A stretch of DNA of 64,000 nucleotides, taken from contig CAZPJI010000009.1 in the NCBI GenBank assembly GCA_964586925.1, positions 3,683 to 67,682 of the forward strand, written 5' to 3'. Below, piece after piece: positions 4,033 to 45,864 of the stretch. The stretch's first letter is position 1, and each line of letters opens with the position of its first letter. This DNA comes from an uncultured Gammaproteobacteria bacterium. GTDB lineage: Bacteria > Pseudomonadota > Gammaproteobacteria > JAKDMP01. The position numbers and the translations under genes are program-made. The notes beneath the pieces were generated by a model, which saw only the letters and a program-made list of their open reading frames with translations, was not told the DNA's origin and did not search any database.

Positions 4033-5592
4033 TTGCCCATGTCCTCCGAACGGCCCATCCGCCGCGCCCTGCTGTCCGTGTCCGACAAGACGGGGCTCGC
4101 CGATTTTTCCCGCGAACTCAGCGCTGCGGGCGTTGAACTGATTTCCACCGGCGGCAGTGCGCGCGAGTTGCGCGCGGCCGGGCTGTCCGTAATGGACGTG
4201 TCCGAAGTGACCGGCGTCAGCGAAATGATGGGCGGGCGCGTCAAAACGCTCCATCCCCGCATCCATGGCGGTATCCTGGCCCGCCGTGGGGAAGACGAGC
4301 CGGAACTCGAGCGCCATGGGATTACACCCATCGACCTCGTCGTCACCAACCTTTACCCCTTCGAGGTTACGATCGCCAGGGAAGGCGTCGGCGAAGCCGA
4401 AGCGGTCGAGCAGATCGACATTGGCGGGCCGGCGATGATCCGTGCCGCCGCGAAGAATTTCTCCGCAGTGACCGTGGTGGTCGATCCCGCGGATTATCCG
4501 GCTGTAGCTGCCAGCATCCGCGAACAGGGCGGGGTGAGTCTCGAGGAGCGCCGCCGGCTCGCCGCCAAGGCGTTTGCCCGAACCGCCGCGTATGACGCTG
4601 CCATCGAGCGCTGGTTTGACCGCGACGGCGATGCTTTTCCGAGTATTTATGCGCCGCGATTCGAGCGGATCAGCGAATTGCGCTACGGAGAAAACCCGCA
4701 TCAACGCGCCGCCCTTTATCGCGAAGCGCAGGCGGGTGCCGGCACCGTGGTCAACGTCCGCCAGCACCAGGGCAAGGCCTTGTCTTTCAATAACCTGGCC
4801 GACACGGAAGCAGCGCTCCATGCCGCAAGCGGATTCGCCGCCCCCACCTGCGTCATCGTCAAACACCTCAATCCCTGCGGCATAGCCAGTGCGGAGAACC
4901 TGCACGCCGCCTATACGAAGGCCTTTGCCTGCGATCCGACTTCGGCGTTCGGCGGCATTATTGCCTGCAACCGCATGCTCGACGCTGAGACGGCAAAAGC
5001 GATCGTGGCCAACCAGTTCGTCGAAGTCATCGTTGCGCCGGATGTCACCGACGATGCGCTTTCGGCTTTATCCGCCAAGCCGAATGTGCGTGTCCTGTCC
5101 TGTGGCGATCTCGCCGAACGCCGGGAAACGCTCGAATTGCGCCAGTTGGCCGGCGGCGTTTTGCTGCAGGATGCGGATCCGCTGCGTCCGCTCTCTGCCG
5201 ACGCGGAAGTCGTGTCACGGCGCTCGCCTGACGAGTCCGAATGGCAAGCCATGGACTTTGCCTGGCGCGCCGTGCAGGCCGTCCGTTCCAATGCCATCGT
5301 GCTGGCTACCGAAAACGCGACCATCGGCATCGGCGCCGGCCAGATGAGCCGGGTTCTGGCGGTGCGCATCGCCGGAATCAAGGCCGAAGAGGGTGGACAC
5401 GATACGACGGGCGCCGTGCTCGCCAGCGATGCCTTCTTCCCGTTCCGCGACAATATCGACGAAGCGGCGAAAATGGGGATACGCGCCATCGTTCAGCCGG
5501 GTGGCTCGCGCCGTGATCCAGAGGTGATCGAGGCGGCGGATGGGCATGGGATAGCCATGATCTTCACCCACGAACGCCACTTCCGCCACTGA
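4033..5592 (+). CDS. purH: Bifunctional AICAR transformylase / IMP cyclohydrolase
   Basis: 519 aa. N-terminal MGS-like domain (RALLSVSDKTGL, GGILARR) and C-terminal AICARFT domain. Full length. Confidence 0.95.
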   Translation: MPMSSERPIRRALLSVSDKTGLADFSRELSAAGVELISTGGSARELRAAGLSVMDVSEVTGVSEMMGGRVKTLHPRIHGGILARRGEDEPELERHGITPIDLVVTNLYPFEVTIAREGVGEAEAVEQIDIGGPAMIRAAAKNFSAVTVVVDPADYPAVAASIREQGGVSLEERRRLAAKAFARTAAYDAAIERWFDRDGDAFPSIYAPRFERISELRYGENPHQRAALYREAQAGAGTVVNVRQHQGKALSFNNLADTEAALHAASGFAAPTCVIVKHLNPCGIASAENLHAAYTKAFACDPTSAFGGIIACNRMLDAETAKAIVANQFVEVIVAPDVTDDALSALSAKPNVRVLSCGDLAERRETLELRQLAGGVLLQDADPLRPLSADAEVVSRRSPDESEWQAMDFAWRAVQAVRSNAIVLATENATIGIGAGQMSRVLAVRIAGIKAEEGGHDTTGAVLASDAFFPFRDNIDEAAKMGIRAIVQPGGSRRDPEVIEAADGHGIAMIFTHERHFRH

Positions 5593-5614
5593 GACGGCGT
5601 CAGTTGGCCGATAA

Positions 5615-5915
5615 CTTTGTTGCGGGCCTCTCTGCGCTGCTCATGCACTTCTAGTGCACTCCGCTGCTCGCGAGCCCCGCGCCGCGTTCTCGCCCAACTG
5701 ACGCCGTCTCTGCGTCTCCGTTGAAAGCTGCGGGCGCTGCTTATGTACTGATGCGTATACTCCGTTGCTCGCAAGGGCTGCGCCGTGCGCTCGAACAACT
5801 CAGGCCACCTCAGCGTCTTCGTTGAAAGCTGTAGGTGCTGCTCATCATGTACTGACAAATGCACTCCGCTGCAGCGAGGGCTGCGTCGCATTCTCTCTTG
5901 ACCGTGGTCAGCGCG
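5615..5915. repeat. Three tandem copies of a ~100-bp intergenic repeat (period 99-102 bp)
   Basis: Each copy contains the core GCTGCT(C/T)ATG(C/T)ACT ... (G/A)T(G/A)CACTCCG(C/T)TGC(T)CGCGAG/CAAG. The core starts at 5655, 5755 and 5857. A second conserved block CGTCT(C/T)CGTTGAAAGCTG(C/T)(G/A)GG(C/T)GCTGCT lies at 5716 and 5813. Confidence 0.8.
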
Positions 5916-5975
5916 TGTGCGCGATAGCAGGTTTGGTCATGGTCCGGGTGCGGCACGTGTGCTACATTCAAACGA

Positions 5976-6761
5976 ATGGATGAATCGTCCTCGTCAGCCC
6001 CGGCCAAGGCGCCAGCTGCGCCGCCGCCACTGCATGTCCTGGCGGATGACGGAGGGCGCCGGGCGTTGTTTCTGGATTTCGATGGGACGTTGGTCGATCT
6101 GGCGCCTTCGCCGGAGGAAATCAACGTACCTCCGGAATTGCCCCGTTTGCTTCAGGAACTGGCAACGGATTTCGCCGGCGCCTTGGCCATTTTCACTGGC
6201 CGCACGTTGGCCAATCTGGATCGCCACCTTGGAATCCATTTGCCGGCTGCGGGTCAGCACGGCGTCCAACGACGCCTGAAAGCGGACGAGCAACCACAGG
6301 AAATCCCCTTGCCCTCGCTGGACGGGGCGCGTTCCAGGCTGCATGAACTGATCGCGGCCTGGCCCCGACTGTTGGTCGAAGACAAGGGCTCGACGCTGGC
6401 CGTGCATTACCGCGCCGATCCCGGGGCCAGGGAACAGGTTCATGCCCTGTTCGAGGAGATCGTTGCCGCCTCCGGGAATACTCTGGAGATACAGGAAGGC
6501 AAATATGTCTATGAGCTGCGTCCCGCGGGCGTCGACAAGGGCGTGGCCTTGAACGCTTTTATGCAAACGCCGCCCTTTGCCGGGTGCCTGCCTCTGGTGG
6601 TGGGTGATGACGTGACCGATGAAGCCGCTTTCGAAGCGGCCCTGCGCGCCGGCGGGTCTGCGGTGAAGGTCGGTGAAGGGGTGACATGTGCACCGTGGAG
6701 CATCGCTAGCCCGTATAAGGTGCGCATCTGGCTGCAAGCTATGTTGGAGGCCGGCCGATGA
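5976..6761 (+). CDS. otsB: Trehalose-6-phosphate phosphatase (HAD superfamily)
   Basis: HAD motif I LFLDFDGTLVD. The length (~260 aa) and its position immediately upstream of otsA with an ATGA overlap support the call. Confidence 0.85.
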   Translation: MDESSSSAPAKAPAAPPPLHVLADDGGRRALFLDFDGTLVDLAPSPEEINVPPELPRLLQELATDFAGALAIFTGRTLANLDRHLGIHLPAAGQHGVQRRLKADEQPQEIPLPSLDGARSRLHELIAAWPRLLVEDKGSTLAVHYRADPGAREQVHALFEEIVAASGNTLEIQEGKYVYELRPAGVDKGVALNAFMQTPPFAGCLPLVVGDDVTDEAAFEAALRAGGSAVKVGEGVTCAPWSIASPYKVRIWLQAMLEAGR

Positions 6762-9133: not shown

Positions 9134-9991
9134 ATGAATAGGCCCGAAGCGCCAGATAACATTTTGATCAGCCTGATTATTCCCACGTATAACCGCGAAG
9201 AGCTGCTTGTGAACACGTTGCGCTGTGCCTTCGGTCAGGATCGTGACGATTACGAGATCGTGGTGGTCGATCAGACACAGGAGCACGAACCGGCTACCCG
9301 CGATTTTTTGAATGAAAATGCCGGGCGAATAAACTTGGTTCGTTTGCCAACCCCTTCGGTTACTGCGGCTCGCAACGCGGGCATGCGTGTTGCCCGGGGT
9401 GATTTTTTCGTGTTTATCGATGACGATACGAGTTTCGAACCGGATTTTCTTTCCCGTCATCTCGAAGCCCATACGGACGGCATGGGTGCAGTGCAGGGAC
9501 GAGTTACCGAGGACGGCTCTCCGGAGCATGATCACCCTACCTGGGTCAATCGCTGGATTCGCTTCCGGGGCGGAGACAATTGTCCGCATGACGGGACAAC
9601 CAATAACCTGACTGGCTGTAATTTTTCCGTACGGCGCGAAGTGAACGAAAAGATTGGTGGCTTCGACGAGCGTTACATGGGCGTTGCTGTGCGTGAGGAA
9701 TCGGATTACGCCCAGCGGATTATAGCTGCCGGTTACCGCATCGCTTATTCGGCACAGGCTGCAGTATTTCACCATCGCTCGAATCGTGGTGGACACGGCG
9801 AGGGGGGGGATCCCATATTTTTCAACCCCGCGTATTATCAAAGTGAGCTACTTTTTGCCCGTAAGCATTTTTCACCGTTGTCTGTGGCGTTATACCGGGT
9901 GCGGTTAAGATTGCGAGGACGACGTGCGATCAGGCGCCTTGTCAGACAAGCTGATAAAGCAGTGGACAGGGCGTTAAAAATCAAGGAATAA
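9134..9991 (+). CDS. Family 2 glycosyltransferase
   Basis: LISLIIPTYNREELL is the GT-A DXD-fold N-terminus, and a DDD motif (FIDDDTSF) is present. The ATG at 9134 (MNRPEAPDN) is preferred over the ORF-track start at 9071, which overlaps glk. Confidence 0.75.
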   Translation: MNRPEAPDNILISLIIPTYNREELLVNTLRCAFGQDRDDYEIVVVDQTQEHEPATRDFLNENAGRINLVRLPTPSVTAARNAGMRVARGDFFVFIDDDTSFEPDFLSRHLEAHTDGMGAVQGRVTEDGSPEHDHPTWVNRWIRFRGGDNCPHDGTTNNLTGCNFSVRREVNEKIGGFDERYMGVAVREESDYAQRIIAAGYRIAYSAQAAVFHHRSNRGGHGEGGDPIFFNPAYYQSELLFARKHFSPLSVALYRVRLRLRGRRAIRRLVRQADKAVDRALKIKE

Positions 9992-41276: not shown

Positions 41277-43265
41277 TCAACCGCCGAGGAGAATGTTTTC
41301 CGCTTGTTCTATGGCTTCCGGCGTGCCGTAGAGCACCAGCGTGTCCGTGGGCTGCAGCACGGTCTCCGGCCCCGGGTCACGGCCCACGATGCCGGCCCGG
41401 CGCAACGCGGTGACGTTGATGCCCAATTCCTCCAGTTGCAATTCGCCCAGCGTACGGCCGGTGGACTGGGCCCCGGGGCCGAGGGTGATCGCGTCGAGCT
41501 GTTCACGGAATGCGTGCGTGTCATCGAGGGGAGCGGCGTCGCCACGCCGGTAGACGTTACGCATCAGCGAGTAGCGCTGGGAGCGCACTTCGGTGACATG
41601 GCGCAGGATGCGGCGCATGGGTACGCCCAGCAGCGCGAGCAGGTGCGAGGCCACCATGAGGCTGGCCTCCAGGGTCTCGGGGATCACCTCATCGGCGCCG
41701 GCCGCACGCAGCTCTTCCAGGTGTGAGTCGTCGCGTGTGCGCACCAGAATGGGCAGGTCTTGTCGCAATCGGCGCACGCTGTCGATGATCACCATCGCAG
41801 TGTCCACACTCCAGTATGTGATTACCAGTGCCCGTGCGCGGAGAATGCCGGCGGCTTCGAGCACCGCGGTCTGCCGCGCATCGCCGAAGTAGACAGGGTC
41901 GCCGCCGGCATGGGCTTCGCGCACCCGCTTGGGGTCCAGGTCCAGCGCCACATAGGGAAAGCCTTCCTCGTCGAGGAAGCGCGCGAGGTTCTGTCCGACG
42001 CGGCCGAAGCCGGCGAGGATGACGTGTCCGGCGACCTCGCTTTCCTGGATGGCCAGAGCTGCCGTGTCTATGTCCTCGTCGGGCAGGACGGAGTCGGGGG
42101 ACAGATGCGCGGCAATCGCCGAGTTGTAGCGCACCAGAAATGGGCTCACGATCATGCTCAGCACGAGGATGTTCAACGCGACCTGCGCGGTCGTGCCCGA
42201 AAGATAACCGTGCGATAGTCCGAGCGTCAGCAAAGCGAGGCCGAATTCGCCGCCCTGGCCGAGGACCAGGCCCGTGCGCAGCGCTTCGCGCAGCGGCGCA
42301 CGTAACAGGCGGCTGGCGAGCAGCACGATCAGTGTCTTGAACAGGATCAAGGCCAGGGTGCCCAGCAGGATGACGGCTGTGTGAGTTAAATACAGGCGTG
42401 GGTTGGCATACATGCCGACGGTGACAAAAAACAGGCCCAGGAGGATGTCGCGGAAGGGACGGATATCGGCCTCGATCTGGGGCCGGTAAGCACTCTCGGC
42501 GAGGATTGCGCCGGCGACGAAGGCGCCCAGCGCCAGCGATAGGCCGGTAGCCTGGGTGGCCCAGGCGGATGCCAGCGTTATAAGTAACGAGGTGAGCAGG
42601 AATAGCTCGCCCGAGTGACTGCGGGAGATCTCTACCAGTAGCGGTCGCACGACGAAGCGGGCGGCGAGGATCATGATCACGACAACGGCTACGCCTTTCC
42701 CGAGGACGATGGCCAGCGTGATGGCCGAAGAGGCCCAGCTGCCATGGCCGTTGGCGAGAGCCGGAATCAGGATCAGCAGCGGAATAACGGCCAGGTCCTG
42801 GAACAGGAGCACACCGATCGCCAGGCGCCCGTGGATTTGGCGCAATTCGAGTTGTTCGCCGAGCTGCTTGGCGACCAGGGCTGTGGACGACATGGCAACG
42901 GCGCCCGCGAGCAGTACCGCGATTACCGGCCTTGCACCCGCAAAAAAGTAAAGCGCCAGTGCCGCGAGCGCCATGCTGACACCGACCTGCAATCCCCCGA
43001 GCAGGAATACTTCCCGCCGCATTGCGATGAGCCGGTTGAGTGAGAACTCGAGCCCGATGGTGAACAACAAAAAGACGATGCCGAATTCGCTCAGTGCCGC
43101 GGTGGTCGCATCGTGAGGCACCCAGGCCAGCACGTGCGGGCCCACGCAAATACCCGCGACGAGATACCCGAGGGCGGTGGGCAATCGTAAACGCCTGATC
43201 AGCCATACGGCAGCGACCGCAATGACGAGCAGGATCAGGATCCCGCCCAAGGCTTCCGGATTCAC
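41277..43265 (-). CDS. kefB: CPA2-family monovalent cation:H+ antiporter with C-terminal RCK/TrkA-N domain (KefB/KefC-like K+ efflux)
   Basis: 662 aa. 12-13 TM helices colinear with E. coli KefB (LFQDLAVIPLL), then a Rossmann RCK domain (HVILAGFGRVGQNLARFL). GTG start. Confidence 0.8.
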   Translation of the reverse strand: MNPEALGGILILLVIAVAAVWLIRRLRLPTALGYLVAGICVGPHVLAWVPHDATTAALSEFGIVFLLFTIGLEFSLNRLIAMRREVFLLGGLQVGVSMALAALALYFFAGARPVIAVLLAGAVAMSSTALVAKQLGEQLELRQIHGRLAIGVLLFQDLAVIPLLILIPALANGHGSWASSAITLAIVLGKGVAVVVIMILAARFVVRPLLVEISRSHSGELFLLTSLLITLASAWATQATGLSLALGAFVAGAILAESAYRPQIEADIRPFRDILLGLFFVTVGMYANPRLYLTHTAVILLGTLALILFKTLIVLLASRLLRAPLREALRTGLVLGQGGEFGLALLTLGLSHGYLSGTTAQVALNILVLSMIVSPFLVRYNSAIAAHLSPDSVLPDEDIDTAALAIQESEVAGHVILAGFGRVGQNLARFLDEEGFPYVALDLDPKRVREAHAGGDPVYFGDARQTAVLEAAGILRARALVITYWSVDTAMVIIDSVRRLRQDLPILVRTRDDSHLEELRAAGADEVIPETLEASLMVASHLLALLGVPMRRILRHVTEVRSQRYSLMRNVYRRGDAAPLDDTHAFREQLDAITLGPGAQSTGRTLGELQLEELGINVTALRRAGIVGRDPGPETVLQPTDTLVLYGTPEAIEQAENILLGG

Positions 43266-43379
43266 GGGGTACCCCCTCGTTGGACCATGGCGTCCGGTCC
43301 CGTTTCGTACACCTCTAGCTTATACTGTTGTCATGCTGATTCATGCAGTCAGGGCGGAAGGTGATGCCCGCAGTGGCAC

Positions 43380-43637
43380 TTACTAACCCGACCGGTAGTA
43401 AAGCCTCACTCAGAGCTCCTGCGCCGTTCGCCGACAAGGCGCGTTCGCGCCGGCGTAGTCGTTCTACGCCAAGCGGGCGCAACGTCGGCGGCGGGCGGCT
43501 CAGGGGCTCCCTGCGGGCGGGACGGTGCCGGGCGCCTGCGGCGTTACGCGGGCTTGAAAGGGAATCACCCTTCCTGCGCCCGCGTGCCTTGCATGCACAC
43601 CGGCACCGTCTCGCTGAGTGTGGCTTTACTACCGGTC
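43380..43637. mobile_element. MITE-like element: 36-bp terminal inverted repeats flanking a ~185-bp GC-rich structured core, located in the kup promoter
   Basis: Left arm 43380-43415 TTACTAACCCGACCGGTAGTAAAGCCTCACTCAGAG. The right arm 43600-43637 is its reverse complement with 2 mismatches. Each arm contains its own TTACTA/TAGTAA hairpin. Confidence 0.6.
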
Positions 43638-43668
43638 GGGTTAGTAATCCGTCCAAAGCAGAGCAATA

Positions 43669-45864
43669 ATGCTGTTCCAAAAGCTTTTATCCAAGCCGCA
43701 AGGGGGCGAGGACGACGCTCAGGATTCCGAGCGCCGCCGCCAGTTGTGGTTGTCTTTCCTCTCCTTGGGCGTCGTGTTCGGCGACATTGGCACGAGCCCA
43801 CTCTATGCCGTCCGGGAGTCGCTGCATGCCATCGGTCATGCGCCGACGAAGGAAGAAGTGCTGGGCATCATCTCGCTCGTGATCTGGGCGCTGATCCTGG
43901 TCATCTGTTTCAAATACCAGACATTCGTGTTGCGCGCGGATAATCGCGGCGACGGCGGGATCATCGCACTTGTGGCCTTGCTGCGCCATCGCAACCGCCC
44001 GGGCGCGGAGCGCCAGCCGGTAGGCGCTCCCCAGCGTTCGCGACGCCAATGGGTGGCTGCCGGGGCCTGGGTGTTGGTACTGGGTACTTTCGGGGCCTCG
44101 CTGCTCTACGGCGACGGCATGATCACCCCGGCCATTACCGTGCTCTCGGCCGTGGAAGGCCTGCATGTGGCAACGCCCAGCCTGGGGCATCTCATCATTC
44201 CCATCACGTGCGCCATCCTGTTTTTCCTGTTCTGGTTTCAGCGCAAGGGAACCTCCGGTGTCGCCACCTGGTTTGCGCCGATCATGGTGGTGTGGTTTCT
44301 GACCCTTGCGGGCCTGGGGATAGCCTCCCTGATGCGTGCGCCGGGTGTCCTGGCTGCTTTCAACCCGTTGCACGCCGTGGATTTCTTTCTCTCGCACGAA
44401 GAATTGGGCTTTATCGTGCTCGGTTCAGTCTTCCTGGTCGTGACGGGCGGTGAAGTGCTCTATGCGGATCTGGGGCATTTCGGCGCACCCCCGGTGCGCC
44501 GCGCCTGGTTTGCACTGGTATTTCCGGCCCTGTTGATGAATTATCTGGGCCAGGGGGCGATGGCGATCCGGCACCCTGAAGCGGTTCCTGACCTGTTCTA
44601 TTCACTGGCACCGGGATTTGGCGGGAATTTTTCCATTTTTGCACTGACGTTGCTGGCGACCGTGGCCGGCGTCATCGCTTCCCAGGCGGCGATCTCGGGC
44701 GCGTTCTCGCTCATGACACAGGCCATTGGTCTGAACATCAGCCCCCGAGTCAAGATCGAACGCACCTCGCGCACCGAACGTGGCCAGGTCTACATTCCCT
44801 CGCTCAACGTCATACTGATGATTGCCTGCATCCTGTTGGTGCTGACGTTCCGCAGTTCCAGCAACCTGGCGGGCGCATACGGGGTGGCGATCAGTACGGA
44901 CATGCTGATCACGACGCTGCTGATGTATATCGTGATGCGGCGCTTGTGGCATTGGTCCTGGTGGAAGACGATTCCACTGATCGCCGTTTTCCTGGCGATG
45001 GATATCCCGTTCTGGGGCGCCAACATGATCAAGCTCGACCAGGGCGGCTGGGTGCCGATCATGATCGCGCTGATCGCTTTTGCGATCATGCGGGTCTGGA
45101 CCAAAAACCGCGAACGGCTGATCCGCACCCTGCGCTCGCGGACGGACAATGTCGCCGTATTCCTCGACCGTCTTGGGCATCACATGCCTAAGCGGGTGCC
45201 GGGTACGGCTGTGTTCCTGGCAGCGCCGGGTCTGGGGATCCCGCCCATGCTCAAGTACCATCTGCGCCACAACCAGGTGCTGCACGAGCAGGTGTTGCTG
45301 CTTTCGGTCATGATCTCCGATGAACCGACCGTCAAGGCTCGCGGGCGTCTGGATGTCGTGCCGCTCGGCTATGGTTTCTACCAGGTGACCATGCATTTCG
45401 GGTTCAAGCAGGAGCAGAACGTGTTGATTGGCCTCAAGCTCGCGGCCGAGCAGGGCTTGCTTGACATTGATCCCGAGCGGCTGACGTTCTACATCGGCCG
45501 TGAAACGCTGATGCCTGCCAGTTACGGGGGGCCCCTGCATGGCCCCCGGCAATGGTTTGCCCGGCACTGGCGCAAGTGGCGGCGGTTGCCCGAGCCCGAG
45601 CGTACCGGAGGACAGGAAGTGGGCATCATGCAGGCCATCTCGGAGCGGGTGTTCGTGCTGATGCATCGCAATGCGATGCGTGCTACCGACTTCTTCAAGA
45701 TTCCGGATGACCGTACGGTGGAATTCGGTTTGCGCGTCAGTACCACGGCGCTTACCCGGGAAGAGCAGCTGGAACGACAGCGCCAGCGTGCAGAAGCACT
45801 GGCGCAGACGGACGTGCATGCGGACAATTCCGCAACGTCACCCAAGGCGGGCGAAACTGCCTGA
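43669..45864 (+). CDS. kup: KUP/HAK/KT family potassium uptake protein
   Basis: 731 aa. The N-terminal K+ transporter signature (GVVFGDIGTSPLYA, GDGGIIAL) and 12 TM helices. Confidence 0.9.
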   Translation: MLFQKLLSKPQGGEDDAQDSERRRQLWLSFLSLGVVFGDIGTSPLYAVRESLHAIGHAPTKEEVLGIISLVIWALILVICFKYQTFVLRADNRGDGGIIALVALLRHRNRPGAERQPVGAPQRSRRQWVAAGAWVLVLGTFGASLLYGDGMITPAITVLSAVEGLHVATPSLGHLIIPITCAILFFLFWFQRKGTSGVATWFAPIMVVWFLTLAGLGIASLMRAPGVLAAFNPLHAVDFFLSHEELGFIVLGSVFLVVTGGEVLYADLGHFGAPPVRRAWFALVFPALLMNYLGQGAMAIRHPEAVPDLFYSLAPGFGGNFSIFALTLLATVAGVIASQAAISGAFSLMTQAIGLNISPRVKIERTSRTERGQVYIPSLNVILMIACILLVLTFRSSSNLAGAYGVAISTDMLITTLLMYIVMRRLWHWSWWKTIPLIAVFLAMDIPFWGANMIKLDQGGWVPIMIALIAFAIMRVWTKNRERLIRTLRSRTDNVAVFLDRLGHHMPKRVPGTAVFLAAPGLGIPPMLKYHLRHNQVLHEQVLLLSVMISDEPTVKARGRLDVVPLGYGFYQVTMHFGFKQEQNVLIGLKLAAEQGLLDIDPERLTFYIGRETLMPASYGGPLHGPRQWFARHWRKWRRLPEPERTGGQEVGIMQAISERVFVLMHRNAMRATDFFKIPDDRTVEFGLRVSTTALTREEQLERQRQRAEALAQTDVHADNSATSPKAGETA

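Follow-up and report, generated by a model that had tools for sequence, protein, structure and literature searches.

The kefB–kup locus and its intergenic element

The window, i.e., the whole 64-kb stretch of DNA analysed here, contains two divergent genes for potassium transport, a KefB-like efflux gene and the uptake gene kup, and the intergenic region between them holds a large G+C-rich element bounded by inverted repeats. The preliminary description of this DNA, made from the letters and a list of open reading frames, had placed such an element beside the same two genes, and the domain content and strands of both neighbours agreed with that placement. The features of the locus, with strand given for the two genes, are as follows:

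41277–43265 (− strand): KefB-like K+ efflux gene (Na_H_Exchanger, TrkA_N and TrkA_C domains), in the same synteny in relatives
43316–43356: conserved intergenic block of 41 nt, AGCTTATACTGTTGTCATGCTGATTCATGCAGTCAGGG, outside the element and upstream of the insertion point
43380–43401: left mini-palindrome
43381–43382: left apparent TA target-site duplication, from the TA flanks of eight of nine two-ended copies and the empty site of relatives
43382–43412: left terminal inverted repeat (5′ strand of stem P1), from the repeat search and family alignment
43383–43644: element proper, non-coding, 262 bp and 68% G+C, with ends CTAACCCGACCGG...CCGGTCGGGTTAG, absent at the orthologous sites of relatives
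43396–43413: left family-conserved core, TAGTAAAGCC-N-CACTCAG
43413–43509: hairpin P2, 97 nt, from the consensus fold, pair counts and the fold of the window copy
43510–43516: P2–P3 junction, CCCTGCG, which reads CCCTTCG in most other copies
43517–43614: hairpin P3, 98 nt, with three family-invariant wobble pairs, from the repeat search and consensus fold
43614–43631: right family-conserved core, CTGAGTG-N-GGCTTTACTA
43615–43645: right terminal inverted repeat (3′ strand of P1), from the repeat search and family alignment
43626–43647: right mini-palindrome
43645–43646: right apparent TA target-site duplication, from the sequence and the gapless alignment obtained on excision
43669–45864 (+ strand): kup (K_trans and K_trans_C domains), starting 22 nt after the right TA, at the same ATG as is used by the called genes of relatives

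The repeat search returned inverted-repeat arms at 43380–43426 and 43601–43647 (47 nt each, 85% complementary, with a spacer of 174 nt), and the outer 26 nt of these, TTACTAACCCGACCGGTAGTAAAGCC, are perfectly complementary. No other occurrence of TTACTAACCCGACCGGTAGTAAAGCC was found in the 64-kb window, even at three mismatches, and 100 shuffles yielded no matches; the inverted repeat upstream of kup is far beyond chance. The near-perfect terminal repeat described earlier is thus present, but the right end assigned to it, 43637, falls 10 nt short of the true end at 43647, and since the arm ends there, the distance to the kup ATG at 43669 is 21 nt rather than the 31 bp first given. Each arm carries the TTACTA/TAGTAA mini-hairpin that had been noticed, in the form TTACTA-N10-TAGTAA, an A+T-rich 6+6 palindrome within G+C-rich DNA. 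The interior (43400–43599) has a G+C fraction of 0.71 and is composed of sub-hairpins, also as had been described, although with arms of 36 nt it measures 196 nt and not about 185. Three reading frames are open through the element, and their translations had no homologue among 5.8 billion proteins, in keeping with the view that it lacks coding capacity.

Only one copy is present in the window. A second palindrome lies at 5591–5710, with 25-nt arms, GAGACGGCGTCAGTTGGCCGATAAC and GTTCTCGCCCAACTGACGCCGTCTC, that are 92% complementary and separated by 70 nt; it is unrelated by sequence to the element upstream of kup and may belong to another small repeat family.

An empty site in relatives

Kup homologues mark the host as an uncultured gammaproteobacterium, the best database relative being 92% identical, and the comparison of loci extended over four groups of relatives ranked by Kup identity: L001 (92%), L002/L003 (90%), L018–L020 (81%) and L004–L006 (80%). 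Gene order around kefB–kup was identical in all four groups, while the intergenic region measured 139–187 nt in them versus 403 nt in the window. The flanks were conserved in the alignment and the element was a single block missing from every relative. Excision of 43383–43646 produced a gapless alignment, the joined window sequence GGCAC-T-TA-A-TCCGTCC...AATAATG standing against GGCGC-C-TA-G-CCCGATC...AATAATG in L001, with L002 and L018 similar. Compared with the closest relatives available, the element is an insertion and, since excision restores the gapless alignment, it entered at a TA located 22 nt upstream of the kup start. The empty site reads C-TA-G in three of the four relatives (L001, L002 and L018), and the window flanks read T-TA-A. 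An arm that was unique and conserved in position among related species had been named as the result that would speak for a regulatory palindrome or riboregulatory element; what was found is the opposite, the four closest relatives being syntenic and devoid of the element.

The 41-nt block AGCTTATACTGTTGTCATGCTGATTCATGCAGTCAGGG contains the direct repeat TCATGC-N4-TCATGC and is kept in relatives down to 80% Kup identity while its surroundings diverge. It is likely, judging from this conservation, a candidate for a shared promoter or operator of the K+ efflux/uptake gene pair; a promoter scan gave no sigma-70-like match in the block, nor in or beside the element. The preliminary description had the element inserted in the kup promoter. 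A position in the 5′-UTR is at least as likely as one in the promoter, because the insertion is downstream of the conserved block and 22 nt upstream of the ATG.

Two further observations were made at this locus. In L004 (about 9870–9925), and also in L005 and L006, a different G+C-rich and hairpin-rich insertion of about 55 nt is present between kefB and kup, on the upstream side of the conserved block, and with this second case the kefB–kup control region has been struck by small insertions more than once. In addition, Kup of the window has 731 residues and its two closest homologues (92% and 90% identity) have 716; since the start codon is the same, the 15-residue difference must sit elsewhere in the protein.

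Related copies at unrelated loci

Searches with the exact 22- or 23-nt outer arm gave no matches in 596 Gb of species-representative genomes or in a metagenome collection. The productive query was the inner-arm motif common to both arms, TAGTAAAGCC-N-CACTCAG-N-G, which succeeded where the outer arm, variable among copies, failed. The scan of metagenomes with this motif led to copies L010 and L008, and the scan of genomes to a Halofilum MAG (L011), to the MAG SMAG_U1233 (L015), and to three contigs of one Ectothiorhodospiraceae MAG, CAZVBX01 (L012, L013 and L014). Comparison of the translated L013 copy with a protein collection added L021/L022 and L023 by way of two spurious ORFs, with L021/L022 counted as one insertion place present in two samples. 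The element was thereby located at ten insertion places, nine of them outside the window, all intergenic and all in gammaproteobacterial MAGs or metagenome contigs. The neighbours differ at every place: kefB/kup; a merC-like gene; an istB fragment with tnpB; rpmG; a phosphatase-family gene; an aminotransferase gene with a sigma-70 factor gene; fpg; rsmI/lpoA; fur and an ABC transporter; and an SDF transporter. The orientation of the element relative to its neighbours is mixed. A search for dispersed copies had been proposed at the outset as a check on mobility, and it returned these nine further places with unrelated flanks, three of which are on different contigs of a single MAG.

Both ends can be seen in nine copies, and in eight of these the inverted repeat runs up to a TA on either side, with no complementarity in the bases farther out; the exception is L015, in which the outer arms have diverged and there is no clean left TA. 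Copies within one MAG share 96% identity, those on two contigs of one metagenome sample 91%, and the window copy is 68–77% identical to the six other full-length copies. Shorter forms derived by internal deletion also exist, i.e., 236 bp in L010, 220 bp in L008, and an arms-only form of 70 bp in L011. The last of these (L011, 542–611) is a P1 hairpin with a 4-nt loop and TA on both sides; in the Halofilum MAG it has the rpmG (ribosomal protein L33) stop codon on one side and, on the other, a hairpin with a T-run that resembles a terminator.

Several individual copies deserve mention for their surroundings. The L008 copy (region 4261–6084) directly follows a C-terminal fragment of IstB (IS21) and is about 380 nt downstream of tnpB (OrfB_IS605/Cas12f-like), an insertion into an IS-rich patch that is reminiscent of RUP, a repeat of Streptococcus pneumoniae that tends to insert into IS elements (PMC2229807). 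In CAZVBX01, contig CAZVBX010000015.1 begins within a copy (L014, 1–54), and another copy (L012, 148–414) is 147 nt from the start of contig CAZVBX010000005.1; the true copy number of this MAG is probably greater than three, because the repeat apparently breaks the assembly at two contig ends. The predicted proteins P0121 (231 aa; L021, 10001–10696) and P0122 (204 aa; L023, 10001–10615) run through copies of the element and have no Pfam domain; almost certainly neither is a real gene, the ORFs being spurious products of the G+C-rich repeat. Two A+T-rich metagenome contigs (L007 and L009) and a viral contig (L016) each had a single arm-like match with no partner arm and were treated as chance matches.

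To judge from the 18-base motif, which had five matching loci in the 596 Gb of genomes and two real ones among the metagenomes, the family appears to be rare. Blastn of the window and L013 copies against plasmids and phages returned nothing useful, that of the consensus arm against 72,556 plasmids a single chance-level match, and neither its sequence strings nor the host family led to a description of the element in the literature. It is apparently a small, previously undescribed family of halophilic Gammaproteobacteria (Ectothiorhodospiraceae, Halofilum and unclassified MAGs).

A probable non-autonomous mobile element

Bacterial MITEs typically have terminal inverted repeats, TA termini, target duplications and transcripts that form long stem-loops (PMC2229807). 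In the element upstream of kup the terminal inverted repeats span 31 bp or more; it is small and non-coding, the only protein matches to the family being the two spurious ORFs that overlap other copies; it is bounded by an apparent short target-site duplication, a 2-bp palindromic TA that is indistinguishable by sequence from TA-containing termini; filled and empty sites were found between close relatives; and copies of the family are dispersed within one MAG, CAZVBX01 (three contigs), and within one metagenome sample (two contigs), the 64-kb window having a single copy. We consider it likely that 43383–43644 is a copy of a non-autonomous mobile element of the MITE type. This was also the reading put forward originally, and the relatives of the element at unrelated flanks, the TA on both sides and the empty orthologous sites all uphold it. 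A target-site duplication immediately outside the arms, the other check then suggested, was borne out as a TA at both ends here and a single TA at the exact position of the empty site in three of the four relatives.

The mechanism would involve a DDE transposase acting in trans that binds the inverted repeats, duplicates the TA and mobilises the element. Insertion at TA with apparent duplication of the TA, as expected of the IS630/Tc1-mariner group, was observed, and a transposase of that type would, by analogy with RUP and other bacterial MITEs flanked by TA (PMC2229807), be the most likely agent, the alternative being an IS5-group enzyme. CTAG, the form of the empty site in three of the relatives, is a preferred target of IS630, and IS5-group enzymes make duplications of 2–4 bp. 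No autonomous partner with matching inverted repeats was found, and none of the five genome matches was a full-length IS, the query being an exact 18-base one that would miss a diverged partner. Likewise, no transposase gene was present within 10 kb of the L021 and L023 copies, and near the others there were only the unrelated tnpB and istB fragment at L008. Since no partner was found, the attribution to an IS630-type enzyme has the TA duplication as its one basis; many accepted bacterial MITEs are similarly without a known partner (PMC2229807). TA is probably scarce outside regulatory regions in this DNA of 62–68% G+C, and insertions would thereby be steered to promoters, leaders and gene ends.

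A fold maintained between lineages

The RNA fold of 43370–43670 has a predicted energy of −201.6 kcal/mol, compared with −130.2 ± 5.6 for shuffled sequences (z = −12.8). In an alignment of the seven full-length copies (A3, mean column identity 85%), all share a three-way junction in which P1, about 33 bp formed by the inverted repeats, closes P2 and P3. Over the seven copies 97% of pair cells are standard pairs (96% in P1). Changes on both sides were counted in 35 of 106 pairs, versus 12.5 ± 2.6 when columns were shuffled (none of 500 shuffles reached the observed value) and 1–8 when partners were slid by 1–3 columns. Window and L012 differ by 15 compensatory changes and 7 broken pairs, and pairwise comparisons overall gave 15–18 compensatory versus 5–7 broken pairs each. 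These compensatory changes between lineages indicate that the fold was maintained as the sequences diverged, which points either to selection acting on active copies in their folded form or to arm-to-arm conversion.

The two hairpins have a pseudo-two-fold symmetry, with an imperfect duplex, GCAAGGCGCG/CGCAACGCCGC, present once in each hairpin in mirrored orientation. This duplex yields three invariant wobble pairs in P3 and an internal loop in P2, and in P2 the motif pair CAAGGCGCG / GCGCAACG forms an internal loop. The three wobble pairs of P3 that are found in seven of seven copies correspond to A3 columns 163:214, 164:213 and 167:210 (window 43540–43544 with 43586–43590); the pairs next to them co-vary, and at the mirror-image position P2 has an A/C internal loop.

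The conservation of the fold bears on a second reading, in which the family would be more than a deletion derivative of an IS and the whole three-way junction would be required for propagation, as folded single-stranded DNA, or would be retained by the host as an RNA module, e.g., an mRNA stabiliser or RNase III site. The mostly compensatory nature of the differences between lineages is in its favour, as neutral decay after insertion would not give such a pattern, and so are the constancy of the P3 wobble pairs amid co-varying neighbours, the invariance of the imperfect duplex in both hairpins, the junction, which on the + strand of the window reads CCC-UUCG-GGG or CCC-UGCG-GGG with a UNCG-type loop, and the 70-bp derivative in L011, which retains only the P1 hairpin. 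Were this reading true, the copy at kup would alter the expression of K+ uptake in a halophile. However, there was no strand asymmetry in folding energy, three copies favouring one strand, two the other and one neither to any extent, and among variable cells G.U (14) and A.C (6) did not differ significantly, on a strand for which the structure itself had been predicted. The mixed orientation to neighbouring genes argues against an RNA module, as does Rfam, in which no match reached the gathering score and those at E < 10 were hairpin-like miRNA models far below threshold. Moreover, related IS elements also differ concertedly in their inverted repeats, and conversion between the arms of a palindrome gives the same pattern without function. 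The conserved fold does not identify an RNA function, and we regard a fold-dependent element of this sort as unlikely.

Other readings of the element

The abundance of hairpins, and a TA duplication that by sequence might equally be TA termini, could also be accommodated by a palindromic element mobilised without a DDE enzyme, i.e., of the IS200/IS605 type, or REP/BIME-like and moved by a Y1 (HUH) transposase, with a fixed target and no duplication. The left flank and first base are (T/A)TAC in every copy, recalling the TTAC target of IS608, and the tnpB gene about 380 nt from the L008 copy would fit the same picture. Against this, the ends form a duplex of at least 31 bp with one another, as true terminal inverted repeats do, and those of IS200/IS605 have distinct subterminal hairpins, the TA is symmetric on both sides, and no tnpA, tnpB or RAYT gene is near the other copies. 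For REP/BIME in particular, which are RAYT-associated imperfect palindromes of 20–40 nt with a conserved GTAG/GGAG head, no pairing of distant ends and no duplication, the GTAG head occurs only in the window copy, the others having CTAGTAA or CTGGTAA, and the ends pair across about 200 nt. A non-DDE origin seems to us quite improbable.

The position immediately before kup, between two divergent K+ transporter genes, and the A+T-rich palindrome in each arm could suggest instead a resident cis-regulatory element of kefB–kup, either a riboswitch or leader RNA, or operator palindromes that loop the DNA; c-di-AMP riboswitches do occur upstream of K+ transporters. Such an element is hardly credible given that it is missing from the orthologous kup leaders of all four relative groups examined, that related copies lie beside unrelated genes, and that Rfam, c-di-AMP riboswitches included, gave no match. 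Least credible, to the point of being negligible, is a fold-back chimera of assembly or amplification: long palindromes can form in this way in amplified or mis-assembled metagenomic DNA, but the interior consists of two distinct hairpins with no simple fold-back, and the same architecture is present in at least eight independent assemblies.

Several other candidates were discarded. A riboswitch, retron ncRNA, omega-RNA/HEARO, group II intron and ribozyme were ruled out for want of any Rfam match, and neither a reverse transcriptase nor a tnpB gene adjoins the window copy. A left arm derived from the target (CTAACCCGACCG versus CTAGCCCGATCG in L001, alike at 10 of 12 positions) was rejected as the same arm is present at unrelated loci, and an integron attC site was rejected as the ends fit RYYYAAC/GTTRRRY at only five of seven positions, fewer in some copies, with no cassette array.

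Possible consequences for kup and beyond

The insertion at kup lies between the conserved intergenic block and the ribosome-binding region, and from that position it is probably transcribed as part of the kup leader, in which it would form a three-way-junction RNA that folds on its own; co-transcription is the most likely outcome on the model of the locus given here. The 11 nt immediately preceding the kup AUG are predicted to remain unpaired. A scan for outward promoters and terminators found no promoter-like site and, as to terminators, only an unrelated weak candidate inside kup, with no intrinsic terminator after the element. Any effect of the element on kup may be exerted through mRNA stability, RNase III processing or its spacing from the promoter.

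As a lineage-specific and recent insertion into a control region for K+ uptake and efflux, in a bacterium of a halophilic lineage, the element is a candidate source of strain-level variation in K+ homeostasis. It adds a large, G+C-rich and strongly structured MITE family to the poorly studied uncultured Gammaproteobacteria, and there is a practical side, in that repeats of the family appear to break MAG assemblies (the two contig ends) and yield spurious ORF calls (P0121 and P0122). Because its fold is maintained by compensatory changes, the family provides a small test case for whether selection or homogenisation alone preserves the structure of a bacterial MITE. It leaves the general view of such MITEs unchanged, and no new kind of system is involved.

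Comparison with known elements

Classical bacterial MITEs are shorter than 200 bp, A+T-rich and folded as a single stem-loop (PMC2229807), and the element at kup departs from them in all three respects. Among G+C-rich hosts, the CIR repeats of Caulobacter and Brucella resemble it in having two stem-loops joined by a linker (PMC2229807), but they lack terminal inverted repeats that pair the ends and contain a GANTC motif, whereas in the kup element a 33-bp terminal stem closes two hairpins. The ERIC/IRU and YPAL repeats of enterobacteria are likewise intergenic, transcribed, imperfect palindromes (127–168 bp) with filled and empty sites between close relatives (PMC2229807). YPAL differs in having no TA termini and duplications of 3–26 bp, ERIC in having inverted repeats of 7 bp, and the nested arm-hairpin-hairpin-arm architecture is found in neither of them.

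RUP of Streptococcus pneumoniae and the MITEs derived from IS630, e.g., Nezha of cyanobacteria, share with the kup element insertion at TA, apparent duplication of the TA and inverted-repeat ends. RUP was attributed to an IS630-family transposase acting in trans from its TA targets, i.e., from similarly indirect evidence (PMC2229807); however, the inverted repeats of RUP match those of IS630-Spn1, while for the kup family no matching parent IS was found, and host, size and composition differ from those of RUP and Nezha. The Correia elements of Neisseria (CREE/NEMIS) are non-coding, with inverted repeats of about 24–26 bp and TA ends, and lie in intergenic DNA near promoters or gene ends (PMC2229807), and they too have size variants that arose by internal deletion. 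The long hairpins into which their transcripts fold can act on the mRNAs of neighbouring genes (PMC2229807). Points of difference are the promoter activity, IHF site and RNase III processing of Correia elements. The two also differ in that Correia elements are 100–155 bp, A+T-rich, single stem-loops with hundreds of copies, while the kup element is 262 bp and 60–68% G+C, folds into a three-way junction whose two internal hairpins are each about 97 nt long, and appears to be rare and low-copy; no similarity in sequence was seen. The Correia elements and RUP are the closest functional analogues of the element at kup.
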